A stretch of DNA of 57,625 nt from Microgenomates group bacterium RBG_16_45_19 (GTDB taxonomy: Bacteria; Patescibacteriota; Microgenomatia; UBA1400; RBG-16-45-19). The first letter of the stretch is position 1, and the number at the start of each line of letters is the position of its first letter. Positions 29,348-53,234 of this stretch are shown one piece after another. The notes under the pieces are model-generated. The model did no database searches, was not told the DNA's origin, and saw only the letters and a program-made list of their open reading frames with translations. The stretch covers positions 1 to 57,625 of the forward strand of contig MHDC01000038.1 in the NCBI GenBank assembly GCA_001803415.1, written 5' to 3'. A program made the translations under genes and the position numbers.

Positions 29348-30340
29348 ATGCGGCGCTTTTTGGTTATCAGTTTTTTCACCTGCCTTTTGATTGGTTTATG
29401 GTCGGTTGGCTTACGTCAAGGCTATTTAAACCATTTTTCTCTACCAGATCCGATTTTAAGTTTTTTTCGTCATTTTGGTTTGACTGGTCCACCCTCACCC
29501 GCCGCCGCCCCACCGGTCCAAACTTCTCCCCAGGAAATCTTTACCAAGATTAATCTCTATCGCCAAAATCAAGCTTTGGCAGTCCTTTCGGCTGATCCCG
29601 CTCTTTGCTCGGCTTTAAATTTAACTGCTGATCAACCCCTGACCGACGCCGTCCTGGCCATTTGCCCCCAGTGTACGCGGGCGGCTTTGGTCACCGCTTC
29701 GGCCTATGTCAGCCCCAACGAACTCTTAACTGCCCTGATTTTTGAAGACGCCACGCATAACCATCTCTTAAGTCCCACCGCTCGTTATTTATGCCCGACG
29801 ACCGCTCAGGGTAAATTAGCCTTACTTTTTGTCGAGCAAGCCACCCGCGAAGCTCTGGCTCAACCCTCGCCAACTTCGGTTCCGGTTAAACCGGTGGTAG
29901 TCGTTTCTCAACCCCCCAAAAACTTTACCGAAGCCGAATTATGGCAAGCCCTGGTTAATTATCGTCAAGCTCATCAACGCTCCAGTTTGATTCATGAAGA
30001 ATCCATCTGCCAATATGCCCGCAAGCGCGTTCAAGACCAAATCAACCTCATGGCCCAAACCGACGCCTCCGCTTATCCCAATTCTGATAAATATCCCCTC
30101 GATGATCATCAGGGTTTCAATCAAGACGCTGATTCCGGCTTAGCCTTTGACCTGGCCGGAAAAAACCACTTAGCCGAAAATTTAGCTTATTGGCCTGATG
30201 CCCAGTATGCCCATCAAATTATTGAATGGGGTTGGGATACTTCGACTGAAGGCCATCGGGAAGCTCAGTTATCCAACGACTGGACTCATGCCTGCCTGGC
30301 CGGTAGCGACGGTTTTTACGTCGCCATCTTCGGCTATTAG
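29348..30340 (+). CDS. Secreted/anchored protein with CAP (SCP) domain(s)
   Basis: N-terminal hydrophobic segment; INLYRQ and VNYRQ repeats, AENLA, GH..QL, C-terminal CAP pattern. Confidence 0.65.
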   Translation: MRRFLVISFFTCLLIGLWSVGLRQGYLNHFSLPDPILSFFRHFGLTGPPSPAAAPPVQTSPQEIFTKINLYRQNQALAVLSADPALCSALNLTADQPLTDAVLAICPQCTRAALVTASAYVSPNELLTALIFEDATHNHLLSPTARYLCPTTAQGKLALLFVEQATREALAQPSPTSVPVKPVVVVSQPPKNFTEAELWQALVNYRQAHQRSSLIHEESICQYARKRVQDQINLMAQTDASAYPNSDKYPLDDHQGFNQDADSGLAFDLAGKNHLAENLAYWPDAQYAHQIIEWGWDTSTEGHREAQLSNDWTHACLAGSDGFYVAIFGY

Positions 30341-31008
30341 CTTTTCAGTAAGCTCAGCTGTCGCTTTCTTAAAAAAGTTCGTTGCTGTTGGTAACTGGGA
30401 TCGAATTGCTCCACTAACTGCCAAAACTTCAAGGAATGATCATGGTGTTGGATGTGGGCCAGCTCGTGAATTACCACGTAATCGATTACCGCCGGCTTAA
30501 AGTGAATCAAGCGCCAGTTAAAGCTTAAATGGTTTTTGTGGCTGCAGCTACCCCAGCGGCTTTTTTGTTGTCTAAAGCGTAGCGGACCTGGCGTAACCTG
30601 CATCAGTCTCGCCCAACTGGCCGACCGCTCCCTGATTTCCCGTTCTCCCTCCCGTTTTAACCAGGTCACCAACATCTTTTTGGCATCTTTTCCCAACCCT
30701 GTCACCGGTGATACCGTAATTTCCTTTGGCTTAACCATGATTCTTGATTCTTGATTCATGATTCTAATTTTATATAGCCTTCCCAAATAACTTACCACCT
30801 TCTGTTCCCAATCAAATACCGGCTGGACTTCTCGATGTAATCTGACTCTGGCTTGCTGTCGCTTAACCCAAGTCTCATTGGTTTTGACGAAGCGCTCAAT
30901 CAGTAGTTTTGGCACATAAGCCGGAGCGGTAACGCCTACCTGCCCGTCGGCCTCCACCCGGATCTTAATTGAACCGCTCCGTCTTAAGCGTTTTAATTGA
31001 TACTCCAT
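30337..31008 (-). CDS. YgjP-like zinc metallopeptidase-fold protein (M48/SprT-like, DUF45)
   Basis: KSRWGSCS, FNWRL, DYVVIHELAH..H..HS..FW; ATG 31008 after GGAGG. Confidence 0.9.
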   Translation of the reverse strand: MEYQLKRLRRSGSIKIRVEADGQVGVTAPAYVPKLLIERFVKTNETWVKRQQARVRLHREVQPVFDWEQKVVSYLGRLYKIRIMNQESRIMVKPKEITVSPVTGLGKDAKKMLVTWLKREGEREIRERSASWARLMQVTPGPLRFRQQKSRWGSCSHKNHLSFNWRLIHFKPAVIDYVVIHELAHIQHHDHSLKFWQLVEQFDPSYQQQRTFLRKRQLSLLKS

Positions 31009-31042
31009 TGCCCTCCTGGTTTTTGTAGTATAAACTACCCTT

Positions 31043-31432
31043 ATGGCTGTCTTTACCACTAATATTGAAACTGCCACTTTGAAGAATTCCCATTTTCGCC
31101 AGGTTTTATTTACTGGCCAACATCAGCAGCTGGTGGTCATGAGCTTAAAGCCCCAAGAAGAAATTGGGGCTGAGGTCCATGATGAGGTTGATCAGTTTTT
31201 CCGTTTAGAAGCCGGTGAGGCTAAATTTATCGTTGATGATCAAACTTTTACTCTTAAAGCCGATGACGTCATAATTATCCCGGCTGGTTCCCAGCATAAC
31301 GTCATCAACCCTTCTGCTTCTGAAGCTCTCAAACTCTACACTATCTACGCTCCCCCCAACCATCCGCCCGGGACGGTTCACCCCACCAAAGCCGAGGCTG
31401 ACGCCGCCGAAGCCACCGCCCACCACTCTTAA
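31043..31432 (+). CDS. Cupin-domain protein
   Basis: QLVVMSL..EEIG.EVH..DQFF, IPAG..HNV, KLYTIYAPP. Confidence 0.9.
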   Translation: MAVFTTNIETATLKNSHFRQVLFTGQHQQLVVMSLKPQEEIGAEVHDEVDQFFRLEAGEAKFIVDDQTFTLKADDVIIIPAGSQHNVINPSASEALKLYTIYAPPNHPPGTVHPTKAEADAAEATAHHS

Positions 31433-31453
31433 TCTGCCTGTTACAATAGCCCC

Positions 31454-32698
31454 ATGCTCGCTCAGCCGGTCTTCCAAGTTTCCGAGTGTATTGAAGCTTT
31501 AAATCAACATTTGTCCCTCGTCGGTGAGATTGTGGTTGAGGGTGAGCTAGGCCGCCTGGACGTTAAGAACGGCCGGTTGTTGTTTGGCACGCTCAAAGAT
31601 GCCGTTTCCAGCTTAGATTTTTTCTCCATGTCTCACCTTGTCAAAAATTTCCGCCAGTTCGAACCAGGCATGTTGGTTCAAGCTTACGGCTCGCCCGGCT
31701 TGTATAAAACCTCGGGCAAATTCCGCCTCTTGGTCAACCAGTTGGTGCCGGTGGGTGAGGGTGCCCTGCAGATCGCCTATGATAAACTCAAAGCCCAGTT
31801 GCAACGGGAGGGATTGTTTGCTCCCGAACGGAAGCGGCCTCTGCCTCCCTGGCCTCAAACTATTGGCTTAATCACCGCCGTTGGCTCGTCCGCCCAAGCC
31901 GATCTACTCAAAATTATTACCGCTCGTCGGGGAGGGTTAACTATTTATACTTTACCGGTCAACGTTCAAGGTCGGGAAGCCATCCCCAGTATTTTAAAAG
32001 CCTTTGCTTACCTCAACTATCATCCATCAGCCATCGATCTGGTCATTATAGCCCGGGGTGGCGGCTCGCTGGAGGACCTGGCTGCCTTTAACTCCGAAGC
32101 CGTCTGCCGGGCTGTTTTTGGCTGTCCGGTCCCGGTGATGGCGGCGATTGGTCATGAAGACAATTGGTCTCTCTGCGATTATGTCGCCGACCTCAGAGCC
32201 AGTACCCCCAGCCACGCTGCCGAATTGGCCGTTCGCGATCGACTCGAAGTTTTAAGAGAAATTATCACTTCCCACCAGTGGCTCCATCAGCGCCTGATCC
32301 GTGATTTAAAAACCAAAGAAACGACAGTAAACCAAGCTACCCTGGCCATTCGCCGCCGCCTTCACCGTCTGACCGCCACCGTTAACCAAACCCTCGGCAA
32401 AATCCCGGTTATGGCTGTCTCGCTTCAATCACTCCTCCATCAATATCGTCAAACCTTGGATCACTCCCTGCCTCAATTTTACAGTCGGCTTAAGCGTGAT
32501 CAGGCTTTAAAGCAGCAAGACTTAATTCATCTAGAACGTCTTTTGACCTCATTGGATTACCGGGTCGTCTTACGCCGCGGCTATTCGATTACTCGCTTAA
32601 AAACCGGCCGCATCCTCAAACGGGCTGATCAAGTCAAACCTGGCGCTGCTCTTCAGACTCAGCTGTCACACGGGGCTATCAATTCGATTGTTAATTAA
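31454..32698 (+). CDS. xseA: Exodeoxyribonuclease VII large subunit
   Basis: N-terminal OB fold, ARGGGSLEDL..FN, AIGHE.., RASTPS, RGYSI. Confidence 0.96.
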   Translation: MLAQPVFQVSECIEALNQHLSLVGEIVVEGELGRLDVKNGRLLFGTLKDAVSSLDFFSMSHLVKNFRQFEPGMLVQAYGSPGLYKTSGKFRLLVNQLVPVGEGALQIAYDKLKAQLQREGLFAPERKRPLPPWPQTIGLITAVGSSAQADLLKIITARRGGLTIYTLPVNVQGREAIPSILKAFAYLNYHPSAIDLVIIARGGGSLEDLAAFNSEAVCRAVFGCPVPVMAAIGHEDNWSLCDYVADLRASTPSHAAELAVRDRLEVLREIITSHQWLHQRLIRDLKTKETTVNQATLAIRRRLHRLTATVNQTLGKIPVMAVSLQSLLHQYRQTLDHSLPQFYSRLKRDQALKQQDLIHLERLLTSLDYRVVLRRGYSITRLKTGRILKRADQVKPGAALQTQLSHGAINSIVN

Positions 32699-32716: not shown

Positions 32717-32929
32717 ATGTCCAATGAACCAGCCTTAACTTTTGCCAAAGCCTATGCTGAACTCCAAACGATCACCCAGGAATTTGAGGCCGGAGAACTG
32801 GATTTGGAAAAAAGTATTCCCCGCTTCAAACGGGCCACCGAGCTGGTCAACTTCCTTAAAAAAGAACTGGTTAAGATGGAATCCCAAATCGAAGAAATCA
32901 ATTTAGATAATCAGGAAGGATTATCCTAA
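32717..32929 (+). CDS. xseB: Exodeoxyribonuclease VII small subunit
   Basis: F..A..EL..I...E.GELDLEKSI; follows xseA. Confidence 0.9.
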   Translation: MSNEPALTFAKAYAELQTITQEFEAGELDLEKSIPRFKRATELVNFLKKELVKMESQIEEINLDNQEGLS

Positions 32930-35900
32930 ACTTTCAATCTCCGCCTCTCTTTGATTTTACCCCCCACCCAGACTATACTACCCCCGCCAAGTAATAAGAT
33001 ATTGACGATAATAAACAGTCCGCTAAATCCTCCCGGCAAGCCAATGCCACTTCCGTCACCATCCAAGGCCATGGCTATACCCATCCCTCCGCCCCCGCCT
33101 CCAAATCCTGCCGGAGCCCCATAATATTCCATAGTAAATTTGTTGGAATTTAGTATGTCCGCTCCCAGCATTGGTGAAAAAATGCCTGTAATCGGCATTC
33201 CTCTCGGTCGGGGCACGCTAATCACCCCGCCCCCCTGGTTCTGGGTAAACTGCTGCTCGTCAAACCGGTCATAATCTTGCGACAAATTATCCAAATTCTG
33301 TTGCTGCTGGGCATTAACCAAAGCAATTAATGATGAATACGGGGTAATAAAATGGGTTTCTACCGCTAAATTGTGGTAAGCATCCAATAACGACAAGTTC
33401 TGCATCACTGGTTGGGCGTAAGTTTTTAAGCTCTGCTGTATCCACACTTGGGTCGTCACTTGTGAAGCTGCGGTCGAGGCGGTCTTAATTTCCCCTAAGG
33501 CCGTCATCAGACCGGTAATCTGGCTCAGATTATATTGTTGGTTATTATCAAGTTTTGTCCACCAGTACATCCCCGGCATTCCGGCTTCATTTACCAATTT
33601 AGCTTGATAGGCATAACGTAAGGCCTCGGTAATGCTGGCGAAAATATAGCTGCCGCTTTGAATCATGGTCGTAATTCTTTCTGGATCCAAACTTACTCCT
33701 CCCCGGCTGGGTACCAGGTAAATTGGGGTATTCTTGGGGATAGACCATGACTGCCATTCCGTTGCAGAAAATTGCTTACCGGTTAAAATAATGTAGGCGT
33801 CGTAATTACCCTGGTTGACAATCTTGTTTAACCCATCTAAAGAGTGTTTGCCAAAATTAACTTGGTTATTAACCAAAGTGTCTTTCCATTGAGCGTAAGC
33901 TACTGCCTCGCCGGTTAAATCATTAAAAGGCATGATTTCCACCTGATAATTTTCGGATAAATCCGAGAGGGAGGCTAATTCCTTAATGGCCTTTTCATGA
34001 CCCGCCCCGGCCGAAGTATCAATCAAGACCGCAATTTTTATTGGGCTAGACCCTTTTGGCAGTCCCGGTTGGCATGAAGCCTGTCCGTCAAAATTTGACA
34101 GGGTGGCTGTACTCACTCCCAAATCAACTTGGTCGGTATCTTTCCACTTGATTTGACACAAGCTTTCTTTAATCGCTGGTGATGGGGGGATATAGTTTTG
34201 CTGGCTATCGAAACTGACCCACTCGCCATCCACCTGAGCCGAAAGCTTTACCGTCTTATCGGTCATTAAATTTTGCGCTCTGATGACTTGCGGCAAGTAA
34301 AACCCGTCGGGCGTCAATGGTGTCAGGTAGATAATTTCGATCTTTTGGGGCTTACCCCGTGGCATCGTGGTGTTATTTGTTCCTGGGATGGGAAATACCC
34401 TCAAACGGTATAGACTTGATCCGATTTGTTCCAACAGGGCTGGATCGCGCCTTTGGACTAGTTCCTGCTGGTAAGTCTGTTGGGCTGCCCCCCGGGGCGC
34501 TATCTGGCCTTCGTATTCCAGGTTAGGTCCCAATTTCAAACCGGTCACCACCGCCTCAGGCGGTAATGTAAATTCATAAATCACTTCCTGGTCACTCCAC
34601 TCATTTGTCGTATAAGTTTCCCCGTAAATCACTTGCCCTAATGGCCCTTGCCCTAAGGAGTCAACTTTTATATCCCGGCTAACTAATTTAACATTTTTAT
34701 TTTGCGGAAACTCACTTTGCGGTGTTCCCCATACCCCATGGCCATATAGATAAGTGTAGGCTTCATCTAGTTCGTCCCAAGGCACCTTTTCTTGGTAAAC
34801 AAAGGGGTAAGCTACTGCCAGAAACACTGTTTGGATCGCATCCGCTAAGGGTTCCGGAAAACCTAAAACCTCATGGTACCCCTCACTGATAAAATCATTC
34901 CCAGCTGTCAGTAAATAATTCTCCCGTCTTTCATAAATTTGTTTTATATCAGCCGTTACTTCACTTTTTCTGGGAACAAGCTCCTGGGCAATTTTTAGCT
35001 TCTCACTATAATTATTAGCCTTTAATAAGGTTCCCAGCTGCTTAGCTGATTTGGGGTAACCGCCGGGGACTGATAAAACCACTACTACTGCCAGCCACAC
35101 CACAGCCCCAACCGTTACCCACTTTGAGAATTTGTTTCCTTCTGAAGCTGCCAAAACTTCAAAATCTTTCCGCCACTTTTTCAATAACACGTAAGTCAAT
35201 AGATATGGCAGCCATATGGCCGCCTCAACGAGAAGGAACCCTAACAAGCGGAAGCCAAAACTAACCAAATTGCCTAGAATATCCACCGGCATCGAGATCA
35301 AATCCCCGTATCTGCCGTAGGGGTTTATGAGGTTAGCAAAAAAATCTTCAAAAAAAGCTTGGGCAGCCGTCCCTGTTAACGGGCCGACCACAAAAGTCCA
35401 CAAAATCAGGCCGTATATCAGGGTGAGCGTTATCCAAATAGCCAGCCAAATAACCGCCTGCTGTTTATTATAGGGTAAATTTACTAAGCCTTGCTGGTTA
35501 AAATAAATAAAAACCGGGGAGATTAACAGAATCAACAAGAAGAAATTAATCAGGGGGATAGATGATGCTGCCACCAACAGGCTGACTCCCGCTAAAAATA
35601 GTGTTGGGATTTCGACTCTAAAAAACAGTTTCGACAGCTGCTGGCCTTCTTTGCCGATGTGTTTATAAAGCACATAACCGGTTGCCGCCAACGGTGTCGC
35701 CAATAAAATCAGCCCGTAGCTAATTTGGAAAATACTCCAGTTTTTCCCTATGGTGACTAGATCGACTAAAGCCCCGCCAAATAATAGCCCAACTGCCAAC
35801 AAGCCAAAATAAACTAAGTAAAAAAGGTGGTATCCCCAAAATAAAAAGATCATGCCCCAGGCATTCCCACCGCTTGCCTTGGGGTGAGTTTCGGCTTCGA

Positions 35901-36189
35901 GTTTAGTTTCACCTGCATGTGTTTCAGGTGTCAGGCTCTCAATCACTACTCGCCTAGCACTTTGCTCTACTTCGGCTCTAAAAGCAGCCGGCGTGATATC
36001 TTCATCACCAGCTAATAACCTGATCTTACCCGATTCAATATCCACGATGACTTCGGTAGTGATGGGTGCTTTAGGGTATTTTTGGGTGTAAGCTGCTAAA
36101 ACCGCCTGTTTAATTTTTATGACTAAATCAGTCTGGGTAGCCCCCTGAGATACCGCTAACTTAAACAACGACCCCAACTCGCTCGTCAT
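32926..36189 (-). CDS. Large integral membrane protein: NusA-NTD-like N-terminus + multi-TM region + VIT domain + vWA-like region + C-terminal TM tail (resembles the TIGR02921 PEP-CTERM integral membrane family)
   Basis: VIT-like EVIYEFTLPPEAVVTGL...APRGAAQQTY...DPALLEQIG...YRLRVFPIP; IDTS; TPYSSLIALVN; about 9 hydrophobic helices; C-terminal TM followed by KERRRLK. Confidence 0.7.
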   Translation of the reverse strand: MTSELGSLFKLAVSQGATQTDLVIKIKQAVLAAYTQKYPKAPITTEVIVDIESGKIRLLAGDEDITPAAFRAEVEQSARRVVIESLTPETHAGETKLEAETHPKASGGNAWGMIFLFWGYHLFYLVYFGLLAVGLLFGGALVDLVTIGKNWSIFQISYGLILLATPLAATGYVLYKHIGKEGQQLSKLFFRVEIPTLFLAGVSLLVAASSIPLINFFLLILLISPVFIYFNQQGLVNLPYNKQQAVIWLAIWITLTLIYGLILWTFVVGPLTGTAAQAFFEDFFANLINPYGRYGDLISMPVDILGNLVSFGFRLLGFLLVEAAIWLPYLLTYVLLKKWRKDFEVLAASEGNKFSKWVTVGAVVWLAVVVVLSVPGGYPKSAKQLGTLLKANNYSEKLKIAQELVPRKSEVTADIKQIYERRENYLLTAGNDFISEGYHEVLGFPEPLADAIQTVFLAVAYPFVYQEKVPWDELDEAYTYLYGHGVWGTPQSEFPQNKNVKLVSRDIKVDSLGQGPLGQVIYGETYTTNEWSDQEVIYEFTLPPEAVVTGLKLGPNLEYEGQIAPRGAAQQTYQQELVQRRDPALLEQIGSSLYRLRVFPIPGTNNTTMPRGKPQKIEIIYLTPLTPDGFYLPQVIRAQNLMTDKTVKLSAQVDGEWVSFDSQQNYIPPSPAIKESLCQIKWKDTDQVDLGVSTATLSNFDGQASCQPGLPKGSSPIKIAVLIDTSAGAGHEKAIKELASLSDLSENYQVEIMPFNDLTGEAVAYAQWKDTLVNNQVNFGKHSLDGLNKIVNQGNYDAYIILTGKQFSATEWQSWSIPKNTPIYLVPSRGGVSLDPERITTMIQSGSYIFASITEALRYAYQAKLVNEAGMPGMYWWTKLDNNQQYNLSQITGLMTALGEIKTASTAASQVTTQVWIQQSLKTYAQPVMQNLSLLDAYHNLAVETHFITPYSSLIALVNAQQQQNLDNLSQDYDRFDEQQFTQNQGGGVISVPRPRGMPITGIFSPMLGADILNSNKFTMEYYGAPAGFGGGGGGMGIAMALDGDGSGIGLPGGFSGLFIIVNILLLGGGSIVWVGGKIKERRRLKV

Positions 36190-36205
36190 ACATCTCACTT
36201 CTATT

Positions 36206-36230
36206 AATCAAGTTTACTTTAAACTTGATT
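36206..36230. promoter_or_regulatory. Perfect 11-bp inverted repeat upstream of the NusA-NTD/VIT gene
   Basis: aatcaagttta-ctt-taaacttgatt. Confidence 0.45.
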
Positions 36231-36250
36231 CTGAAGTAAAGTACTCAGCT

Positions 36251-37423
36251 TTAAATTCCGACTAAAGTTAATTCCCTTTCAGCTCGAGTAACTCCGGTGT
36301 ATAACCACCGAGACCAGTCTTCGTCGCTCATGTGTTGATTTCTTTCTTCAAAGAGTAAGACTTTTGGGGCTTGCGAACCTTGAGCTTTATGGACGGTTAA
36401 AGCGTAACCTAGGTCCCATAAATCCCCCAGAGCTTTATATTTTAAGCCGTCAAACTCGGCTAAAGTGGTTAACTGATTAAACTGGTGGGCACTGATTTTG
36501 CCGGCATAAATTAAGCCGTCGTCTAAAGTGATTTCCACCTCGTACCAATGCAGCTTCTCCTCATCAAATATGGGTATGGTTTTATGCAATTGTCCGGTCA
36601 TGCCGTTATAAATGCCCTTTTGCCAGTTGTTTTTAAGGCAAATCAGTCTCTCACCCACTCGCGGGGTTTCACCGTCAAAGGTCAGGTACCCGCGGATGGC
36701 TTGGTTAAGCTTCACCCGGGTATGATTGAAACCGGTTAAAATTAACCAATCTTGATTATATTGCCTTAAAATTTCTTCCACCTCTTGTCCGGTAACGCTG
36801 TCATATCTATTTAATTTCCTCACCGTCTGGCTATAATTTGCGATCGGGATTTGACCCGTTTCCCTGGCCATAATGGATAAGCGAATGATCGGATTGCTTT
36901 GGGCTTGCCGGTGAATCGTCTCTAACTTCAACCGTGGCTTGGCCATCAGATTATAGCGCCCGTTGACCGGCGGCAATTGGCCATGGTCGCCGACGGCAAT
37001 AATCGGCCGCTTAAAGCTTAATAAATCCTGCCATATCAACTCATCTACCATACTGGCTTCGTCTGCCAAAATTACCTCAGCTTGGATATCTTTTTTAAGC
37101 CGCCAACCGGTAATTTGACCTTGGTCGTTGGTCACCGGCGCATAAATTAACGAGTGGATGGTGGAAATACTATCCTTGGCGTAGTCAACTCGCTGCCGCT
37201 TTAAGGTCGCCGCTAACACCCGACTGGCCTTGCCGGTATAGGCGCAGAAGGCTACCCTGGCGTTTGGCTCCAGGTGATGCAGTAGTTTTCGCCATAAGGC
37301 CACCGTCGTCGTTTTACCGGTCCCGGCATACCCACCCAGAGTGATGGCCGGACTATCTGGTCGACTAAGCCAGGTTATCAACTGACTTAAAACTGCCTTT
37401 TGCTCGCGGCTGGCTGCTACCAT
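36251..37423 (-). CDS. SF1B RecD/Dda-like DNA helicase
   Basis: GYAGTGKTT, DEASMV, VGDHGQLPPV, HRQA, YALTVHKAQGS, LYTGVTRA. Confidence 0.92.
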   Translation of the reverse strand: MVAASREQKAVLSQLITWLSRPDSPAITLGGYAGTGKTTTVALWRKLLHHLEPNARVAFCAYTGKASRVLAATLKRQRVDYAKDSISTIHSLIYAPVTNDQGQITGWRLKKDIQAEVILADEASMVDELIWQDLLSFKRPIIAVGDHGQLPPVNGRYNLMAKPRLKLETIHRQAQSNPIIRLSIMARETGQIPIANYSQTVRKLNRYDSVTGQEVEEILRQYNQDWLILTGFNHTRVKLNQAIRGYLTFDGETPRVGERLICLKNNWQKGIYNGMTGQLHKTIPIFDEEKLHWYEVEITLDDGLIYAGKISAHQFNQLTTLAEFDGLKYKALGDLWDLGYALTVHKAQGSQAPKVLLFEERNQHMSDEDWSRWLYTGVTRAERELTLVGI

Positions 37424-37450
37424 GGGCTGATTGTAACGTATACTGGATTT

Positions 37451-38710
37451 ATGCGCCTGCGCTCTCGAAGTTATCCCTCACCCGCCTTGACCCCGGCTCT
37501 CGGACAGCCCTGGCTTAAACGGCTCTGTCTCTACTCCATTATTCTGATGTTCGTCGGCTTGGGTGACGCCATCATGACTTATTTTTCCCCGGTCTATATT
37601 AATCGGCACCTCAATAATGAAATGATCATGGGTTTGATCATTGCCACCTCTTCGATGGTCGGCCTCGCCTGCGACATTCTCTTTGGGGAATTCTTTAGCG
37701 GTAAACCTCATTCCTTTTTTCTCCTCCGCTCCATTGCCGTCGCCGGTCTGTTCTCCCTCTCTTTTATCTTTTTTCCACCCTTGGTGGCCTTGCTGATTCT
37801 GAGCATGGCCTTGTGGGGGATTTATTATGAATTAATTCTTTTTTCCGATTTTCATTTTATTAACCACGCCCTCGACCACCCCCACCACTCCCTGGGTTGG
37901 AGTATCATTAAAATGTTTACCGGTTTGGCTTATCTCATTGGTCCTTTAATTGCCGGTTTTCTGTTAACCTTTAATGAAACTTTTCCCCCCTTGGGGGCTT
38001 TGGTCATGTTTCTGGTTGCCTTCAGTCTGTTTCTCATTTTTCGTCCCCGGCTCGATAAACGCTCTCCGGCTGATATTCACCAAACCGCCCCCAAACGTAA
38101 TTTACTCCATGAATTTAAAGTCTGGCGTCTCCTCTTACCCAAACTCTGGCCGGTCATGCTCTTTATCCTTATCTTAACCATGATGGATGCCGCCTTTTGG
38201 ACCGTCGGCTCAGTTTTGGCCGACACTATGAATCATGGTGGCTTCCTCGTCGTTGCCTATATGTTACCGTCGCTGTTTGCCGGTTATCTGGCTGCCCGCT
38301 TTTCCCCCCGTTATGGTAAAAAACGGACCGCTTTTGTCACCGGTTTGATTTGCGGCTGCCTCTTTGCCCTTTCTGGCTTAACCGCCGCTTCTCCTCTTTT
38401 CGTGATTCTCATTTTCGTCGCCTCCATTTTTCAAGGTATGGCCATGCCCGAAATTTTTGGAGCCATCGAGGATTATTTGGAACGCATGGGTCACTCCGCC
38501 AATACCCTCGTTGGTTTAGAAAATTCGACTACCAGCCTCGCTTTTATTATTGGCCCGATTTTCGCCGGCTTAATCGCTTCTGTTCTCTCGGAACTCTTAA
38601 TGTTTTCTGTCTTTGGTTTGCTGATCGCCGGTATCTCTTTGTTGGCTTTACTGATTGTCCCTCGTAAAATCCACTTGCCCCAAACCGCCCTCAATCAGGT
38701 TGGCTCTTAA
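37451..38710 (+). CDS. MFS transporter
   Basis: About 12 hydrophobic helices in two halves, RYGKKR loop, IGP motifs. Confidence 0.85.
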   Translation: MRLRSRSYPSPALTPALGQPWLKRLCLYSIILMFVGLGDAIMTYFSPVYINRHLNNEMIMGLIIATSSMVGLACDILFGEFFSGKPHSFFLLRSIAVAGLFSLSFIFFPPLVALLILSMALWGIYYELILFSDFHFINHALDHPHHSLGWSIIKMFTGLAYLIGPLIAGFLLTFNETFPPLGALVMFLVAFSLFLIFRPRLDKRSPADIHQTAPKRNLLHEFKVWRLLLPKLWPVMLFILILTMMDAAFWTVGSVLADTMNHGGFLVVAYMLPSLFAGYLAARFSPRYGKKRTAFVTGLICGCLFALSGLTAASPLFVILIFVASIFQGMAMPEIFGAIEDYLERMGHSANTLVGLENSTTSLAFIIGPIFAGLIASVLSELLMFSVFGLLIAGISLLALLIVPRKIHLPQTALNQVGS

Positions 38711-39636
38711 TCGAGTAACCGGCGGTAGACTCGTTCCGGTTTTGGCCCGACCAAAGCTGTCTCTCCAATAAAGACTGTCGGGGTTCCATATATACCCATG
38801 TTGAGTAAGGCCGCCTGTTGGGCTTGGACCAGCCGGGTGGTGGTTTCGGCACTTAAGCACTGGTTTAACGCTGCTTGATCCAAACCCAATTCTTTAAGGA
38901 GATTATCCACATATTGTTTATCCGTCACTTGCTCCGGGGTATTGGTTAACAATCGGTCCAGATATTCACCAAATCGCTCGGGTTTTAGAGTCTGCACGCA
39001 GACATCGTACGGTAACAGGTATTTAGTTTCACTTCTGGTCGGATAGTGGGCAAATCGAACTTCGGCTTGAGACTCAGCCAACACCTCTTTCAAGCTGGGA
39101 TAAGCTTGGCGCGTAAAGGGACAGGCCACACAGCCCACCAGCAATACCACCGGTTTTCCAATCTGGCCATTTTGATAGCGGGGAAAGATGGTTTGGTCAA
39201 TCCCCTCGACTGACAAGGCCTGACTGGCTAAAGCCGAGTCGGTACACTCGGCCCCCTTAGCCCCGGTCGCTTGATTGTTGCTGTTGGTCGGATCAAAGAC
39301 GCAAAATTCGCCCTGATTAAATTGACCTTGGCAGCTGCCCCAAGCCCAATAATTATAGACACCCCGTATGGTCCAGATTGACGTCACCGTCATCCCCATG
39401 ACTAATCCCCAGGCTAACCATTCAAAGCGGCGGTAAACCCAGCCGGCTATTTTAGGCGACCGCGCCAAGACCGGCCCCAGCATTTTAGCTTTGATTTTAA
39501 CGTCAAAGCCGGTTTGACATGGCTGTCTGGTCAGCCGGCGAAAGACGCAGTCAAACGCCTCCCGGGCTAATTGCCGGTGGCTGGCACTGAATAATCCCAA
39601 AATCGATAAAATGACTAAAGCGATTAGACATGGCAT
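38707..39636 (-). CDS. Membrane-anchored Cys-rich thioredoxin/DsbA-like protein
   Basis: GCVACPFT CxxC, HYP, GIYGTPTVFIG cis-Pro motif; N-terminal TM helices with extra Cys; ATG 39636. Confidence 0.75.
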   Translation of the reverse strand: MPCLIALVILSILGLFSASHRQLAREAFDCVFRRLTRQPCQTGFDVKIKAKMLGPVLARSPKIAGWVYRRFEWLAWGLVMGMTVTSIWTIRGVYNYWAWGSCQGQFNQGEFCVFDPTNSNNQATGAKGAECTDSALASQALSVEGIDQTIFPRYQNGQIGKPVVLLVGCVACPFTRQAYPSLKEVLAESQAEVRFAHYPTRSETKYLLPYDVCVQTLKPERFGEYLDRLLTNTPEQVTDKQYVDNLLKELGLDQAALNQCLSAETTTRLVQAQQAALLNMGIYGTPTVFIGETALVGPKPERVYRRLLD

Positions 39637-39640
39637 AAAT

Positions 39641-40855
39641 TTAGACCATTCGCCTGACGGCTTTAACCGCTTCGACCAGACTGACGGCTTCGGCTTCAGT
39701 GTTATAGAAGTAGCTACTGGCCCGGACCGAGCCCTGGATGCCCCGATCGTTAAACCAGGAATGGACACAGTGTTGACCGGATCTCACCATGATCCCGTAA
39801 GCTTCATCCAGTAACGCCGCTATTTGGTGCGGATCAACCCCCTCGAGGTAAAAGGCCACAATCGAACCCCGTAGCTTTGGATCCTTAGGACCGATAATCT
39901 TTAAACCGTTGATCTCCCTTAAACCTTGACTGATGATTTGGTTTAAATGGCTTTCGTGAGATTTGAGTTTGTCCCAGCCGATCTTGGTCAGATAATCAAC
40001 GGCCGCGCCCAAACCCATAATGCCGGCATAATCCTGTAGGCCGGCTTCGAATTTTTCCGGTAAAGGTAGGTGCTGGTAATCAGTGTAAGTGGTGGACACG
40101 ACCGTGTCACCGCCCACTAGAAAACCCTCCATTTTGTCTAGGCAGGTTTTTTTGCCATAGAGCCCGCCGATACCCGACGGCCCCATCATTTTATGTCCGG
40201 AAAAAGCTAAAAAGTCTACCTCTAACTCGGTCACCTTCACTGGTTGATGGGGGACACTTTGAGCGGCATCCACCATCACTAGTGCTCCTGCTCGATGGGC
40301 TAGTTGGGTGATGGTTTCGATGGGATTAGTCACTCCGTCCAGATTAGAGGTCATGACCCAACTGACTAGCTTTGGTCGCTCCTGGGTTAGAGCCTGTTCA
40401 AACCTAACCTGGTCAAACCGGTTATCCGGGGTTGACTTAACTACTGCCAGCTTAATCCCCCGCGTTCGCTGCAGTTTTAACCAAGGCACTAAATTGGAGT
40501 TATGTTCTTTGTCCGAAATTAACACCGTCTCGCCGGCTTTAAGCTCTAAACTGTTAGCCACTAAATTGATCCCCTCGGTGGTATTTCGGGTAAAAATGAT
40601 CTCTTCGGCCAATTTTGCCCCGATAAAATTCTTAACACTTTCTCGAACTGCGCTGACTGCTTCGGTTACCGCTCGGGCTAAGCGGTGGTTCGATCGGCCG
40701 GCGCAAGCCGACATCTCGGTGTAATAGCGCTGGATTTCCGTCAGGACTGCTTGAGGTCTGAGACTCATACAAGCGTTATCGAAATAAATTAGTGGTCGAC
40801 CTTTAATTTGCCTTGATAACATGGGGAAATCAGCCCGGATTTGGTCTAAGTCCAT
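39641..40855 (-). CDS. sufS: Cysteine desulfurase, SufS/CsdA class
   Basis: YFDNA, EHNSN, DAAQ, SGHKMMGP (PLP Lys), RSGQHC catalytic Cys, RAS.YFYN. Confidence 0.9.
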   Translation of the reverse strand: MDLDQIRADFPMLSRQIKGRPLIYFDNACMSLRPQAVLTEIQRYYTEMSACAGRSNHRLARAVTEAVSAVRESVKNFIGAKLAEEIIFTRNTTEGINLVANSLELKAGETVLISDKEHNSNLVPWLKLQRTRGIKLAVVKSTPDNRFDQVRFEQALTQERPKLVSWVMTSNLDGVTNPIETITQLAHRAGALVMVDAAQSVPHQPVKVTELEVDFLAFSGHKMMGPSGIGGLYGKKTCLDKMEGFLVGGDTVVSTTYTDYQHLPLPEKFEAGLQDYAGIMGLGAAVDYLTKIGWDKLKSHESHLNQIISQGLREINGLKIIGPKDPKLRGSIVAFYLEGVDPHQIAALLDEAYGIMVRSGQHCVHSWFNDRGIQGSVRASSYFYNTEAEAVSLVEAVKAVRRMV

Positions 40856-40858: not shown

Positions 40859-41617
40859 CTACTCACTTATTGTCGCCGAGTCAGTCGCTGGTAAAAGTGG
40901 TTCCAGCACCGCTTGGAACGCCGCCAAACCTTGGGGATTTTCAATCCGGCTGCCATTAACAAAAAAAGAGGGGGTGCCGTTTAATCGATTGGCCAAAGCA
41001 CTTAAATAATCGGCTTTAACTAAGCCCTTGACCGCTTTCGAGTTTAAATCCTGTTTAAACTGGTCCGAATTTAAGCCCAGTTCTTGAGCATAGCCCATCA
41101 TGATCTTAGATGCTTGACCAGATTCGGCCCATTCTTCTTGCCGCTCAAAGAGTAGGTGATTCATTTCCCAAAATTTACCCTGCTTGCCGGCGGCTTCAGC
41201 TGCCTGGGCGGCTAAGTTGGCCCGCGGATGGATTTCTTTCAAGGGGAAATGACGGTAGACCACCGCCAGTTGGTCAGGGTAAAGCTGAGTTAGTTGTTCT
41301 ATCAGGGGACTGTATAAACGGCAGGCCGGACATTGAAAATCTGAATATTCAACGATCACCACGGCCGCCGCTTTATTGCCTTGATACCAATCCGTTTCCA
41401 AGACTTGATTGACGGGTTTCACGCCCTCACCAGCGGGTACCGGGATATAACGGCTATAAGCCCACCACCCGATTAAAACTACCAACCCTACTCCCAAGCC
41501 AAACTTGATCAACCGGCGCCACCCCACCTGTTTGCTTTGAGTGGCGATTTTAGCCTGTTTTTCCTGTTTCCTTAAAGCTTTCCGTTCGTCTTTAGTCAAG
41601 GGGGGATCACTTTCCAT
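40859..41617 (-). CDS. DsbA/BdbD-family thiol-disulfide oxidoreductase
   Basis: EYSDFQCPAC, YRHFPL, GTPSFFVNG; N-terminal TM. Confidence 0.92.
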   Translation of the reverse strand: MESDPPLTKDERKALRKQEKQAKIATQSKQVGWRRLIKFGLGVGLVVLIGWWAYSRYIPVPAGEGVKPVNQVLETDWYQGNKAAAVVIVEYSDFQCPACRLYSPLIEQLTQLYPDQLAVVYRHFPLKEIHPRANLAAQAAEAAGKQGKFWEMNHLLFERQEEWAESGQASKIMMGYAQELGLNSDQFKQDLNSKAVKGLVKADYLSALANRLNGTPSFFVNGSRIENPQGLAAFQAVLEPLLPATDSATISE

Positions 41618-48000: not shown

Positions 48001-48453
48001 ATGAAACCCATCAAATCACTTATCCAAACCTACCCTTATCGGACTGTCGCTTTGATTCAGTCACTGATCGCTACCGTCGGTAGTTTATTCCTTAGCCAAG
48101 TTTGGCTCTTAGTCCCCTGTGAACTGTGTTGGTTTCAACGGATCTTTATGTATCCCCTACCATTTATTCTGGGGATCGGTTTGATCAGACGGGAAACTAA
48201 ACTTTATCAATATGTCTTACCCCTCAGTTTGATTGGTCTAACCATCGCCGCCTACCATACCTATCTCTACTATTACGCTAACTATTCTCTCAACGGTGCC
48301 AACGAGACCGTCATGATCGCTTGCAGCGGTGGTGTCTCCTGTACTAATCAACTGATTGAATGGTTTGGGTTTATTACCGTCCCCTTGCTCTCATTTCTTG
48401 CCTTCTCAGTTATCACCCTAGCCATGCTCAAGGAACGCCACGACTCCATCTAA
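48001..48453 (+). CDS. dsbB: Disulfide bond formation protein DsbB/BdbC
   Basis: PCELCWFQRIFMYPL, second Cys pair CSGGVSC, FGFITVP. Confidence 0.92.
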   Translation: MKPIKSLIQTYPYRTVALIQSLIATVGSLFLSQVWLLVPCELCWFQRIFMYPLPFILGIGLIRRETKLYQYVLPLSLIGLTIAAYHTYLYYYANYSLNGANETVMIACSGGVSCTNQLIEWFGFITVPLLSFLAFSVITLAMLKERHDSI

Positions 48454-48470
48454 TCAATAGCTTTCCCTTG

Positions 48471-48571
48471 GTCGCAATTACTGAACGAAGCTCGAACCTT
48501 TATTGAACGAAACTCCGACTGATTGCCGCGCTTTGCGCGGCATAAACTGAACGCTCAGGCGGGCTAAAAGG
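48471..48571 (+). repeat. 101-bp inverted repeat, left copy (att-like arm + GC hairpins)
   Basis: Reverse complement of 53326-53426 with 2 mismatches by manual alignment. Confidence 0.95.
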
Positions 48572-49602
48572 TAAGATAATAATGATTCAGCTCCTTGGTT
48601 TAGGTTGATTCCTTTTTCCTCTAATCCGTCATATACTCCACCTGTATTCTGATCAACCATTCTAGCCCCCAAAATATTTCTCCCATGATACCAATCGAGA
48701 GCTTTTTGGGCCCAATCTAAATATTTTTTTTCTTTGGTAACCGAAAACGCTTCGGTGCAGGCTTCCACCACTGAACCCGCCTCAATCGGTTGTTGCACGA
48801 AAAGAGCTTTTTTGCCGTTTTTTTCAAACCACCCTCGATAACCCGGAAAAGAAAAACAGTCTAATTTTTTGTCATAAATCTGTTCCAGTAATAAATCTAA
48901 AGATTCCTTAGCGATATTCAAATATTTTATATTGCCAAAAACTGAGTAAGCCCAAAACAAAGCCCATGGCAATCTCCCAATATCATATGTAATCTTATCC
49001 TCAAACCATCTCCACGAAATGTCAGAGTTTTTTTCGTAGCTGGTTATTAATTCATCAGATAATATTATTGCCATTTTTTTAAAGTCATATTTACTCATCT
49101 GTCCAATTTTTTTTTTGGAGATTTTAACCTTTATATAATTTTCTAACACCGATCCCAGTTTGGAGCTACACTGATCTCTCACCAATAGACCGTAAATCAA
49201 CCATGCCTTGCTCCTAAGGGATTCTACCTTTTCGATATATTTTACGTACTGATCAAATAAGAACATGCCTGTCAGTTTCTGGTCATCCCTTAACCCCAGT
49301 TTTATAGTATCCGCTAATCCCGCCATTGCCCGGCCAAAATTTTCTCCAATGGACTCATTTTCCCAAACCAAATTCTGATTCAGATCATTCTTATAACTAT
49401 ATTTCCCAGCAGCCGATACTAAAAATTTCAAGTAAATATCAACCAATTTTTCCTCTTTCAATCGAAGTGCCACCTGTAAAGCTCGCGCATTATCATCCAC
49501 GCAGTACCCCTCCCGCAAATCTGGCGTAGCTATCAAACAATGCTCTGCTATCCCGACCATGTCCGTCATCCGATAAAGGTGATCAAGCTTTGGTTTATTC
49601 AT
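48478..49602 (-). CDS. Six-hairpin glycosidase-like protein (the domain often fused to GT4 enzymes); C-terminal tail derived from the repeat
   Basis: GYCVDDNARAL, W.WFED..TYD, QQPIEA, GGVYDGL, NQGAES. Confidence 0.8.
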   Translation of the reverse strand: MNKPKLDHLYRMTDMVGIAEHCLIATPDLREGYCVDDNARALQVALRLKEEKLVDIYLKFLVSAAGKYSYKNDLNQNLVWENESIGENFGRAMAGLADTIKLGLRDDQKLTGMFLFDQYVKYIEKVESLRSKAWLIYGLLVRDQCSSKLGSVLENYIKVKISKKKIGQMSKYDFKKMAIILSDELITSYEKNSDISWRWFEDKITYDIGRLPWALFWAYSVFGNIKYLNIAKESLDLLLEQIYDKKLDCFSFPGYRGWFEKNGKKALFVQQPIEAGSVVEACTEAFSVTKEKKYLDWAQKALDWYHGRNILGARMVDQNTGGVYDGLEEKGINLNQGAESLLSYLLARLSVQFMPRKARQSVGVSFNKGSSFVQ

Positions 49603-50626
49603 GTTTTTCCTTTGCCTTCAAAATTTCTTGATATACTTTTTCATAATTATCTACCATTCGTTCCACCGTAAAGTTTTTATCTACTCTTTCCCTACAATTT
49701 TTCCTGGAAATTAGGTCAATATTTTTCATAGCCCGTTCTGCTTCTTTGAGATTTTTAACAACAAAGCCCGTTTTTCGATCGTCAATTACTTCAGGAATAG
49801 ACCCCAATTCCATTCCGATAACGGGTGTCCCAGTTACCATCGCCTCAATGAGAGTTAAGCCAAATCCTTCGGGGTAGGTGTTTAAATGAAGAAAGCCATA
49901 AGCGTTTTTCAACAGAGCTTTCTTGTCTTCCTCGTCGACTAATCCTACATATTGGATTTTAGAATTTAGATGAGGTTTGATTTCTTTTTCAAAGTATTCT
50001 TTATTTTCTGAAGCGATAAGGCCGGCAATTTTTAGGTTAGCGTTTAGTTTTTTTACCAACTTTATCGCATTATGGACACCTTTATCCGGAGATATTCGAC
50101 CGATAAAACAAAAATAATTATCTGGCTTACCGTTATACGGGTACTCGTTTACCGGAATACCGTGATAAATATTGGCTATATAATTTAAATCCGGTGCGTG
50201 TTTTCGATCGGCATAGCTTATTGAAACATAATGGGTATTTGAATATTTTTTGTAAATTTGGATAACTTGCGGAGAGGAAAAACCGTGGATGGTAGTAACA
50301 ACGGGGGTTTTAACCAGTTTTGAGAAAACAAGCGGGTAAGCATCGTAGTGATTATGGATAATATCGTATTGATCTGAGTCTTCAAAAACCGAAGCCGTAT
50401 GAAGGTATTGATAAACTCTTGGTTCTAAACCGGAGTTTTCCATTATCGGTTTAGGACAGACCCATTTTAACCGGGCAGTAGTTACCGAATCTCCTGTTGC
50501 GTAAAGAGTTACTGTATGGCCGAGTTTCACCATTCCTTCTGCGATACGACTGGCAATTAATTCCCACGGGCCGTATGTAGTCGGAGGAGTTCTCCAATGA
50601 ATTGATGAAAGAATAGCAATTTTCAT
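49595..50626 (-). CDS. Glycosyltransferase family 4
   Basis: PP..YGPWE, GRISPDKG, EGFGLTLIEAM..GTPVI. Confidence 0.93.
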   Translation of the reverse strand: MKIAILSSIHWRTPPTTYGPWELIASRIAEGMVKLGHTVTLYATGDSVTTARLKWVCPKPIMENSGLEPRVYQYLHTASVFEDSDQYDIIHNHYDAYPLVFSKLVKTPVVTTIHGFSSPQVIQIYKKYSNTHYVSISYADRKHAPDLNYIANIYHGIPVNEYPYNGKPDNYFCFIGRISPDKGVHNAIKLVKKLNANLKIAGLIASENKEYFEKEIKPHLNSKIQYVGLVDEEDKKALLKNAYGFLHLNTYPEGFGLTLIEAMVTGTPVIGMELGSIPEVIDDRKTGFVVKNLKEAERAMKNIDLISRKNCRERVDKNFTVERMVDNYEKVYQEILKAKEKHE

Positions 50627-50631
50627 TACGT

Positions 50632-51819
50632 TTATTTTTTTAAAATAGTAATTGTTTTAAAAAGATCGAGGTATCGAAGTCCTATATTTGACCAGGTCAT
50701 TAACCTTCCGTAATCGTACGCTTTTTGGCTAATTTTTTCTTTTTTATCCTGATTTTCCCACAATTCTATTACCGCAGAAGCAATCGAGTCAGCGTCCTGA
50801 AAAGGAACAAGAATACCTCTGGTATTGTTTAGAACCTCCTTCGCATATAAATATGGGGTGGAAATACAACATTTTCCTGCGCCTAGGGCATAAGCAAGCG
50901 CTCCGGAGGCAGCTTGTTGGGGATCAAGATACGGGGAGACATAAAAATCAATGGTTTTTAACCAATCGATTAATTCGTCAAGCGAAAGATATTTGTTAAC
51001 AAATTTGACATTCTTTTCTATTTTTAGTCTTTTTATTTCCTTTTCAAGAAAATTGCGGTATTCTTCGCCGTTAGTTTGTAAAAATACCGGGTGTGTTTGT
51101 CCGATTACTAGATATAAAACATTTGGATAAATTTTGGCGATAGTAGCCACGGCATCTAAAGCATACTCAATTCCTCTCGTTGGAGTTAATAGATTAATAT
51201 TACCAAGAATTATCTTTCCGGTAAGTTGTTTTTTCTCCTTATATGTATCTGTCGGAGCAAATGTAAAATCGGGCGTTCCGTGCGGGATGACTATAATTTT
51301 TTCTCTAGAGGCGCTATATGTATTGACCAATTTCTCCTTAATTTTTTCCATCATAACAACGACAGCATCCGATTTTTTAATTAACCTTTTTAAAATTGCT
51401 CCTTCCCGACTGTTTGGATCATCTAGTACGGTGTGGAGGGTAGTTACTAGCGGTTTTTTTAGCGATTCTACAAAAGGAATAATATATTCACCACATTGAC
51501 TGCCGTACAAGCCATATTCGTGTTGGAGTGAGATAATATCAGTACTCGATTGATTAATGTAGTTAGCTGCTTCAAGATAAGTATGTAACTCCTCTTGTTT
51601 AATTTTGTATTTTACTTCCCACGGGTAATTTATACGCTCTTTTGGCCTTGTGGTGGCCATAATTTCTGCCAAATTATGAGGATTAAGTAAGTTGATCGCG
51701 TTAGTTAAATCTTTTGTATAAGTGGCAATACCACACTTACGGGGTATGTATGAAGAAAGGTAAATAACCCTAATTTCTTTAGACTTTGAAGTTAAAAGTT
51801 TTTCTAAGTTTTTTGTTAT
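50632..51819 (-). CDS. Glycosyltransferase family 4; conserved N-terminus lacks a canonical start (ATA at 51819)
   Basis: Frame is open upstream of the ORF-track start and encodes LSSYIPRKCGIATYT; QHEYGLYG, IPHG, GQTHP, SGALAYA.G, STPY. Confidence 0.85.
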   Translation of the reverse strand: MTKNLEKLLTSKSKEIRVIYLSSYIPRKCGIATYTKDLTNAINLLNPHNLAEIMATTRPKERINYPWEVKYKIKQEELHTYLEAANYINQSSTDIISLQHEYGLYGSQCGEYIIPFVESLKKPLVTTLHTVLDDPNSREGAILKRLIKKSDAVVVMMEKIKEKLVNTYSASREKIIVIPHGTPDFTFAPTDTYKEKKQLTGKIILGNINLLTPTRGIEYALDAVATIAKIYPNVLYLVIGQTHPVFLQTNGEEYRNFLEKEIKRLKIEKNVKFVNKYLSLDELIDWLKTIDFYVSPYLDPQQAASGALAYALGAGKCCISTPYLYAKEVLNNTRGILVPFQDADSIASAVIELWENQDKKEKISQKAYDYGRLMTWSNIGLRYLDLFKTITILKK

Positions 51820-51938
51820 ACTTGAGATCCTTCCTTTACTTGCGTTTCATCTCGTTGAGAAATCAGCCCATAATATACCACTAATCTTCCATTTTGTACA
51901 ATTGTGCCGGTTGGAAAAACTACATTGTTTGTTTGTCC
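51816..51938 (-). pseudogene. C-terminal fragment of a second GH130 gene
   Basis: Manual translation GQTNNVVFPTGTIVQNGRLVVYYG matches the adjacent GH130 GVTNNVVFPTGAVVRDKRLYIYYG. Confidence 0.8.
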
Positions 51939-53208: not shown

Positions 53209-53234
53209 AGTTTATCTACATTAGTACTATTTTA

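Follow-up and report, generated by a model that had tools for sequence, protein, structure and literature searches.

To our knowledge, the N-terminal domain (NTD) of the transcription factor NusA has been treated as private to NusA, with one well-documented job, namely docking on the flap tip of RNA polymerase. The membrane-tethered regulators known to us act on sigma factors or DNA, and we know of none that carries an elongation-factor domain targeting the flap tip. Ultra-small, host-dependent bacteria encode few classical regulators. Here we analysed a 57,625-nucleotide stretch of DNA (henceforth the window; contig MHDC01000038.1) from the genome of Microgenomates group bacterium RBG_16_45_19 (henceforth G000), and in it a minus-strand gene for a large membrane protein whose first residues resemble the NusA NTD. 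An original prediction had pointed to positions 35925-36189 as a NusA-NTD-like module fused to a surface protein with VIT and von Willebrand factor A (vWA)-like regions; this stretch corresponds to residues 1-88 (exactly 35926..36189), and its end coordinate is the likely ATG start of the gene. We found that residues 1-88 are a real homologue of the NusA NTD and that the protein is, with near certainty, a member of a Microgenomates-type (candidate phyla radiation (CPR)/Patescibacteria) subfamily of TIGR02921-like polytopic surface proteins that carries a copy of this domain.

When the window protein was searched as a single sequence, its likeness to NusA was faint. Pfam NusA_N (PF08529) was the only match on the first 113 aa (17.6 bits, E 0.0047), with 18.0 bits on a 95-aa piece and 13.5 bits in the whole protein, all below the gathering threshold of 23.8 bits; NCBIfam gave no match on the N-terminal piece, and a PDB search was likewise weak (1k0r at E 0.24 and a designed protein at E 0.38). 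A BLASTP comparison of the same 113 aa with the NusA of G000 gave E 2e-5 for the pair, at 26% identity and colinear from the N-terminus. Taken alone, the sub-threshold Pfam score (18 bits vs 23.8) favours reading the likeness as chance, which is one form of an artefact; others would be a misassembly that joined nusA to a membrane gene, and a wrongly chosen start codon; against it stands the evidence of homology from profiles, fold and tree.

Specifically, we used the 113 aa as a phmmer query in an exhaustive search of 1.84 billion representative proteins at a cut-off of E <= 1e-3. The search returned 73 proteins, namely 52 of 970-1338 aa that start with the NTD (the window's own protein counted in), 15 shorter pieces of 86-505 aa that likewise start with it, four true NusA fragments (P0041, P0060, P0065 and P0073; E 2.6e-7 to 8.8e-4), which Pfam scores as NusA_N at 66-79 bits, and two proteins (P0071 and P0074) that look unrelated. 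Word-index homologue searches with the whole protein and with an alignment of 46 full-length family members (henceforth A2) recovered only the protein itself; the family thus comes from the exhaustive search. Pfam NusA_N was matched by 34 of 46 family NTDs at E <= 0.01, the best of them at 6.1e-10.

We then relied on a profile of 46 of the 67 family N-termini, hand-picked with no NusA included (henceforth A1). Searched against the PDB, this profile matched 2mt4 (Bacillus subtilis NTD; E 7.5e-12), 1k0r (Mycobacterium tuberculosis; 4e-10, model positions 4-91) and 1hh2 (T. maritima NusA; 1.3e-8). It was also compared by hhalign with A3, in which 21 NusA NTDs of the class are aligned; the probability was 99.7% (E 5.6e-26), with 93 columns paired end to end. 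An AlphaFold2 (AF2) model computed on A1, with a predicted local distance difference test (pLDDT) value of 90.8, has the arrangement that defines the NusA NTD fold: two N-terminal helices (4-14 and 19-37), a beta hairpin (strands 45-50 and 55-60) and a long C-terminal helix (68-86). Foldseek gave 2mt4 as the best match of this model (TM 0.71, probability 1.00), and the leading VIA-align rows were 9a74_B (Z 11.5) and 2mt4 (Z 10.4; root-mean-square deviation 2.5 over 90 residues), both of them B. subtilis NusA, for which the rows together ranged from 2.5 to 3.0 over 90-93 residues; next came a Planctomyces NusA (Z 7.5), while the best non-NusA row reached Z 5.9. The resemblance of the first ~87 aa to the NusA NTD, previously drawn by eye, is therefore borne out by profile and fold alike (A1 profile, hhalign and VIA-align). 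The rest of NusA is missing: Pfam on the 1090-aa protein gave only the weak NusA_N match and a VIT domain, with no S1 or KH domains.

The figure of 1090 aa comes from the list of open reading frames (ORFs) of the window, in which the minus-strand frame 32926..36198 is counted from a GTG. Because relatives align from residue 4 of this form, we chose the ATG at 36189 as the likely start, giving 1087 aa; the in-frame GTG at 36198 would lengthen the protein by 3 residues. The assembly was consistent around the fusion: contigs of runs X1 and X2 span 35819-36372 and a contig of X3 spans 35705-35956, with no differences from the window, and the junction is bridged by contigs from two studies. The fusion also recurs. 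Besides the 52 independent long representatives, the NTD was carried by 18 of the best 80 loci found with tblastn among named public genomes, which come from many assemblies. Given these bridging contigs and the recurrence of the fusion, we exclude an artefact, for which we see practically no room, and the one-off assembly chimera that the original prediction had allowed for is not what the window holds.

We next considered how the domain relates to NusA proper. The genome of the window has a separate, intact nusA of 407 aa on another contig (contig 17, L001:1474-2697), which answers a check set by the original prediction, and both nusA and the fused gene are present in each of G000, G005, G007, G020 and G089. 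Because the same genomes hold both genes, the fused gene is not a replacement for NusA. Across 151 sampled genomes of the class, the A1 profile found matches in 144, nearly all in frames of ~325-470 aa, with most matches spanning model positions 2/4-92. These frames are the genomes' own NusA, and the match in G000 sits at the nusA locus. Among the matches listed, NusA of the class had E values from ~1e-6 to 1e-22 (1e-13 to 1e-22 for the strongest NusA rows) and scored up to ~78 bits, vs 48 bits for B. subtilis and 43 bits for M. tuberculosis. One of the sampled genomes, G068, is unpublished; it contributed one ordinary NusA-type row and supports no claim made here. The NusA NTDs of the class are compact, lacking the head of ~25-30 residues that B. 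subtilis and Escherichia coli NusA have between the hairpin and the last helix. This head insertion corresponds to Pfam NusA_N positions ~58-83 and is missing in the NusA of G000 (L001) and of 20 further class genomes (L084-L103). The fused NTD is likewise headless, which, together with the higher profile scores of class NusA, supports an origin from the lineage's own NusA.

A maximum-likelihood tree of 50 fused NTDs and 21 class NusA NTDs (94 columns, with weak inner forks) contains one branch, with support of 98/97, that splits all fused NTDs from all NusA NTDs, and the fused copies in G005, G007, G020 and G089 do not pair with the NusA of their own genome. The simplest reading of this tree is that the 5' end of the lineage's nusA was duplicated once, long ago, and that the fused copy would then have evolved faster; the subfamily appears to have acquired the NTD only once.

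As for the spread of the fusion, frames of at least 950 aa that start with the NTD were present in at least 6 of the 151 class genomes (G000, G005, G007, G017, G020 and G089), among the matches listed. A phylum-wide sample of 121 genomes contained G000 and only a few others of the class, and it was searched at E <= 1e-14, a threshold that weaker fused copies could escape; there, G000 gave the sole long-frame match, and the other 15 matches were NusA-sized frames. Fused loci in named public genomes are labelled Woesebacteria, Gottesmanbacteria, Amesbacteria, Shapirobacteria, Paceibacterota and 'Patescibacteria group', in line with a CPR origin. Five third-party contigs with a fused CPR-type protein (L004, L009, L011, L012 and L019), one of them 953,690 bases long, are labelled 'uncultured Gammaproteobacteria' or 'Pseudomonadales', labels that are probably wrong.

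Loci without the NTD come from cyanobacteria (many of them Microcoleus), Chloroflexi, proteobacteria, myxobacteria and two metagenome-assembled genomes (MAGs), labelled Gastranaerophilales and Magasanikbacteria. They align only from query residue ~102-120 on, or are partial, and where this could be judged they have 6-59 residues ahead of the first membrane helix. No other N-terminal domain was seen in the position of the NTD in the NTD-free relatives among the best 80 loci, those open at their 5' end aside. Long Arg-rich N-terminal extensions in four high-GC loci (L027, L032, L067 and L072) were considered and set aside, as they look like artefacts of ORF calling. All 13 NTD-free relatives checked close with a PEP-CTERM signal of the VPEPEEW type or a variant of it. 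Judging from these alignments, the NTD is an addition to a wider and older family, seen only in one CPR group.

The remainder of the protein follows the layout of that wider family. NCBIfam TIGR02921 (PEP-CTERM integral membrane family) matched residues 500-1010 at model positions 401-913 of 922 with 158.9 bits (E 1.6e-46), under its cutoff of 200 bits, and weaker NCBIfam matches were to other VIT proteins sorted by exosortases. As in TIGR02921, an N-terminal polytopic membrane region is followed by a large extracytoplasmic part, and relatives align from the first transmembrane helix on. The full-length AF2 model, computed on A2 (mean pLDDT 79.7), has membrane helices at 107-136, 153-175, 182-207, 212-232, 240-288, 301-350 and 352-373 as well as a short one (139-149). 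The ectodomain follows at 380-980, then a Gly/Ser stretch of low confidence (984-1057) and a last helix (1056-1086). In the family consensus the membrane region opens with the motif FWGY(N/H). The original prediction had counted about nine membrane helices, where hydropathy and the model give seven spanning helices and one short one. Its other assignments stood: a VIT domain is present (PF08487; 43.3 bits, gathering threshold 26.5, E 4.7e-11), as are a vWA-like region and a C-terminal transmembrane helix with a basic tail, the latter by hydropathy and AF2. The vWA-like assignment comes from Foldseek, in which the ectodomain matched inter-alpha-trypsin inhibitor heavy chain 1 (ITIH1, 6fpy) at E 1.5e-12 and probability 1.00 over ~600 columns with 11-12% identity, with further vWA fold matches to von Willebrand factor A3 (1fe8) and the CLCA1 VWA domain (6pyo). 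Pfam VWA had no match in the protein. A complete metal-ion-dependent adhesion site (MIDAS) has the motif DxSxS...T...D; here it is incomplete, with D724 in 43/46 and S726 in 42/46 members and no Ser at column 728 (D9, A6, T5, Q4). A search of the ESM Atlas with residues 100-500 gave only unnamed VIT-bearing clusters (0.76-0.79, under the tool's lead level) and no clue to the function of the membrane region.

Averaged over the 46 members, loops on the N-terminal side of the membrane region have net charges of +1.9, +0.5 and +1.8, and those on the opposite side -0.3, 0, -0.9 and -0.9; the C-terminal tail is basic, with a mean of 4.5 K/R in the last 12 residues. Because these loop charges are what the positive-inside rule predicts when the N-terminus lies inside, the NTD is placed in the cytoplasm, a supported prediction that agrees with the earlier expectation for the N-terminus. 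Sorting signals at the other end were absent from the fused members: neither a PEP motif in the last 60 aa nor LPxT[GASN] in the last 70 aa occurred in any of the 46, and exosortase (PF09721) had no match in G000, which is 86.7% complete. The 1.37-Mb G000 has three sortase genes, on contigs 10, 29 and 35 (L108-L110). To us the C-terminal helix looks like a simple additional anchor, a sorting role being also possible. Among the NTD-free relatives, the one in the MAG labelled Magasanikbacteria (L021, ORF 5938-8775) ends in a VPEPEEW PEP-CTERM-type signal, which would be unexpected, as the CPR group is not known to have an outer membrane or exosortase systems.

Sequence conservation within the family is uneven. 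Across the 46 members, mean pairwise identity is highest in the VIT block (496-640; 54.9%) and second highest in the NTD (37.5%), followed by the vWA-like region (26.1%), the membrane region (23.8%) and the linker (9.1%), and the NTD is almost certainly under purifying selection, as these comparisons suggest. Near-invariant NTD positions are E4 (45/46), L8 (45/46), G16 (43/46), G54 (44/46), D64 (43/46), T66 (41/46), P67 (44/46), F70 (43/46), A74 (41/46), A78 (44/46) and R79 (42/46; equivalent to NusA K111), and almost all of them are conserved in NusA of the class too.

To relate these positions to function, we mapped them onto residues described for NusA. In the accessible part of Ma et al. 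(2015; PMC4357713), flap binding occurs mainly via F59, R61, E94 and Q96 of strands 2 and 3, whereas R104 and K111 of the last helix are indispensable for enhancing pauses and dispensable for flap binding. The accessible part of Guo et al. (2018; PMC5842316) describes the flap-tip helix as inserting in a hydrophobic cavity formed by NTD helices 1, 2 and 4, and, in E. coli, a contact between the NusA head and the alpha C-terminal domain on which the isolated NTD depends to enhance pausing. Our mapping uses the A1-2mt4 alignment, whose numbering reproduces F59, R61, R104 and K111, with residue 94 placed by assumed ungapped extension. By this mapping, family column 59 stays hydrophobic (L14, F10, M10, Y5) and column 64, equivalent to residue 96, is D in 43/46 members, so the flap-binding edge appears to be partly kept in the fused NTD. 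The fused NTD keeps the fold, the cavity-forming helices and part of the binding edge, and is without one of the two pause residues, the head and the S1/KH domains. Because the equivalent of NusA R104 is lost, the fused family cannot simply act like NusA.

Because a conserved duplicate of a docking domain would, most parsimoniously, keep the same target, we tentatively propose, at somewhat less than even confidence, that the fused NTD may still bind the beta flap tip of RNA polymerase, acting as a membrane-bound tether or competitor. Anchoring of polymerase, competition with NusA and relay of an outside signal to transcription had been put forward in the original prediction, and we too treat them as conjecture. 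Under this proposal the domain would keep its ancestral job, binding the flap-tip helix; without the pause-hairpin Arg and the RNA-binding S1/KH domains, it would serve at the RNA exit channel as a tether or a competitor of NusA rather than as a pause factor, and might compete there with sigma region 4 as well. Transcription would in this way be coupled to a large surface protein that may be an adhesin for a host or a matrix, either by holding the polymerase at the membrane or through release or occlusion of the NTD when the ectodomain changes state. In its strongest form, which we regard as rather unlikely, the proposal describes a transmembrane link in one polypeptide: the NTD on the flap tip would displace NusA or sigma region 4, or pin the elongating polymerase at the membrane, and the state of the VIT/vWA part (e.g., upon host contact) would set its occupancy. 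A complex prediction of A1 with the beta-flap of G000 RpoB (residues 745-867) scored 0.00 in a single run that had no NusA-NTD positive control, and it speaks neither for nor against docking.

Several observations weigh against continued docking. The branches of the fused NTDs in the tree are longer than those of NusA, i.e., they evolved faster, which would also fit a changed partner. The fusion is sparse (6 of the 151 sampled class genomes, among the matches listed) and therefore not a core function, and gene context in 15 CPR loci and the window yields no link to transcription. The last-helix motif of NusA (ending REAEK), invariant in 21/21 class NusA sequences, is relaxed in the fused family, which varies at the G, G, I, Q and T positions and keeps only the F, two A, the K (as R) and, in part, the Q and V. 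Column 72, equivalent to NusA R104, holds P11, E6, S6 and L4, with A in the window protein, which also departs from its own family with K at D10 and with Q36 where many members are basic. Columns 61 and 62, i.e., two of the four flap determinants mapped in E. coli, are unconserved, being likewise variable in the class's own NusA. Also absent is the head, which in E. coli touches the alpha C-terminal domain and without which the NTD alone does not enhance pausing.

The same observations bear on an equally serious alternative, to which we give the same tentative weight: the NusA-NTD fold may have been exapted for a cytoplasmic role in which contact with RNA polymerase is lost and the domain instead binds another amphipathic helix or protein, oligomerises the membrane protein or regulates the membrane region in cis. 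Loss of the invariant NusA helix 3 motif, the R104 equivalent included, the longer branches and the absence of a conserved transcription-related neighbour would all fit, as would conserved residues that are specific to the family and unlike NusA (D10 in 37/46, H19 in 27/46, S20 in 35/46); moreover, in the accessible part of the literature the NusA NTD is a hub with several partners (e.g., lambda Q and IF2). Against exaptation, most positions retained in at least 90% of members coincide with those that NusA itself conserves, among them the D-I/V-T-P strand and the S-E-F helix at the N-terminus, gene context points to no other partner, and the 80 loci show no other cytoplasmic N-terminal domain in this place, which argues that the NTD is not an interchangeable module.

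The linker suggests a further possibility, namely that engagement of the ectodomain leads to regulated proteolytic removal of the NTD, with the cut in the linker or the first helix, and that the freed NTD then acts as a soluble NusA competitor or anti-pausing factor, much as in membrane-bound anti-sigma systems, with regulated intramembrane proteolysis as the general analogy. The linker that joins the NTD to the first transmembrane helix is disordered and unconserved, and the ectodomain is of ligand-binding type (VIT and vWA-like); both would suit such a release. Yet the loci show no conserved adjacent protease gene, a cleavage motif was not seen, and the scheme presupposes the RNA polymerase binding that is itself conjectural, so that we consider it improbable.

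Gene context offered little beyond the gene itself. No conserved neighbours were found in 15 CPR loci and the window, a small cupin-like family recurring in 3/16; the helicase, transporter, DsbA-like, exonuclease and metallopeptidase genes around the gene in the window (Table 1) are not conserved beside it in other genomes. The rpoB and rpoC genes lie ~27 kb from the fused gene, which we take to be a coincidence. An inverted repeat seen by eye (CAAGTTTA...TAAACTTG, 36199-36250, minus strand) lies in the gap that separates the helicase gene from the beginning of the fused gene; it may serve as a terminator or, as a hairpin, in regulation. Towards the end of the window (its last ~10 kb, 48001-57625), G+C falls from ~0.49 to 0.37-0.40 and the sign of the GC skew flips; this part could be foreign or mobile DNA.

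Table 1. Segments of the fused gene and other features of the window, with coordinates in the window and residues of the 1087-aa form.
Feature	Coordinates	Strand	Basis or remark
Whole gene	32926..36189	minus	1087 aa and stop; ORF list, alignment start of relatives, upstream sequence
Compact NusA-NTD-like domain, residues 1-88	35926..36189	minus	Pfam, BLASTP, phmmer, profile, AF2, Foldseek, VIA-align, hhalign
Flexible, unconserved linker from NTD to first membrane helix, residues 89-106	35872..35925	minus	pLDDT <50; 9.1% identity
Polytopic membrane region, residues 107-373	35071..35871	minus	Hydropathy, AF2 helices, loop charges, family consensus
Helical juxtamembrane part of ectodomain, residues 374-495	34705..35070	minus	AF2 secondary structure; 30.6% mean pairwise identity
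VIT domain (Pfam match), residues 520-608	34366..34632	minus	PF08487
vWA-like alpha/beta domain with incomplete MIDAS, residues 713-880	33550..34053	minus	Foldseek; column counts
Helical C-terminal part of ectodomain with conserved VTPYSSLIALVN block, residues 881-975	33265..33549	minus	Consensus, AF2, identity
Low-confidence Gly/Ser-rich stalk, residues 976-1050	33040..33264	minus	pLDDT <50 at 984-1057
C-terminal membrane helix and basic tail (KIKERRRLKV), residues 1051-1087	32929..33039	minus	Hydropathy, AF2
RecD-like superfamily 1 (SF1) helicase	36251-37423	minus	Neighbour of the gene
Major facilitator superfamily (MFS) transporter	37400-38710	plus	Neighbour of the gene
Two membrane-anchored DsbA/thioredoxin-like proteins	38707-39768, 40859-41617	minus	Neighbours of the gene
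Exonuclease VII large subunit, YgjP-like metallopeptidase, small cupin	30337-32698		Other side of the gene
rpoB, 1131 aa, flap-tip helix motif from residue 793	2054-5449	plus	Pfam
rpoC-looking ORF, 1238 aa	5457-9173	plus	By eye
rpsG-looking and fusA-looking ORFs	9681-10163, 10184-12352	plus	By eye

The building blocks of the protein are known; what is new is the domain architecture and a subfamily restricted to one lineage. As the original prediction had supposed, our literature search, which left most subscription journals out of reach, found no description of a NusA NTD outside NusA or of this architecture. If the NTD does bind RNA polymerase, this would be the first case known to us of a membrane protein directly addressing the elongation machinery, and it would offer a handle on how surface events are coupled to gene expression in ultra-small, host-dependent bacteria; should the transmembrane link hold as well, it would open a new signalling class, directed at transcription elongation rather than initiation, that would have arisen in ultra-small epibiotic bacteria by duplication of the 5' end of nusA. 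If it does not bind, the family would be a clean natural experiment in the re-purposing of a polymerase-docking fold. Either way, the NTD provides a first cytoplasmic clue for the uncharacterised TIGR02921-like VIT/vWA membrane family and, as a small soluble domain of ~90 residues, it is suited to direct expression.

Among known systems, the closest to the fused domain is the NusA NTD itself (PF08529; 2MT4, 1K0R), and above all that of NusA from the same class. The two share the fold, colinear from the first residue, and a set of conserved features (the S-E-F helix 1, G16, Y34, G54, the D-I/V-T-P strand, F70, A74, A78 and K/R79), and with class NusA the fused NTD also shares the lack of the head insertion. 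It differs from NusA in that it continues into a linker and a membrane protein rather than S1, KH1 and KH2, evolves faster, and in the window protein scores under the Pfam threshold. As compared with NusA as a transcription factor, the invariant last-helix motif is relaxed and the equivalent of the pause-essential R104 is lost, while that of K111 is kept as R79.

The rest of the protein compares best with the TIGR02921 family of cyanobacteria, Chloroflexi and others, with which it has a common core that runs from the FW.[YW]N motif of the first helix through the VIT and vWA-like regions to the VTPYSSLIALVN block; in tblastn, such relatives align from query residue ~114 on at 23-28% identity. 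The fused subfamily differs in having the NusA-like NTD, in being without a PEP motif and in scoring below the family cutoff. With the ITIH heavy chains (ITIH1, 6FPY) it shares the VIT and vWA fold of the ectodomain, whereas the window protein is bacterial and membrane-embedded, with an incomplete MIDAS and 11-12% identity. Finally, membrane anti-sigma factors and ToxR-like one-component systems likewise join a cytoplasmic, transcription-directed module to an extracytoplasmic sensing part; they have no relation to the fused protein in sequence or fold, and the likeness is one of functional analogy.

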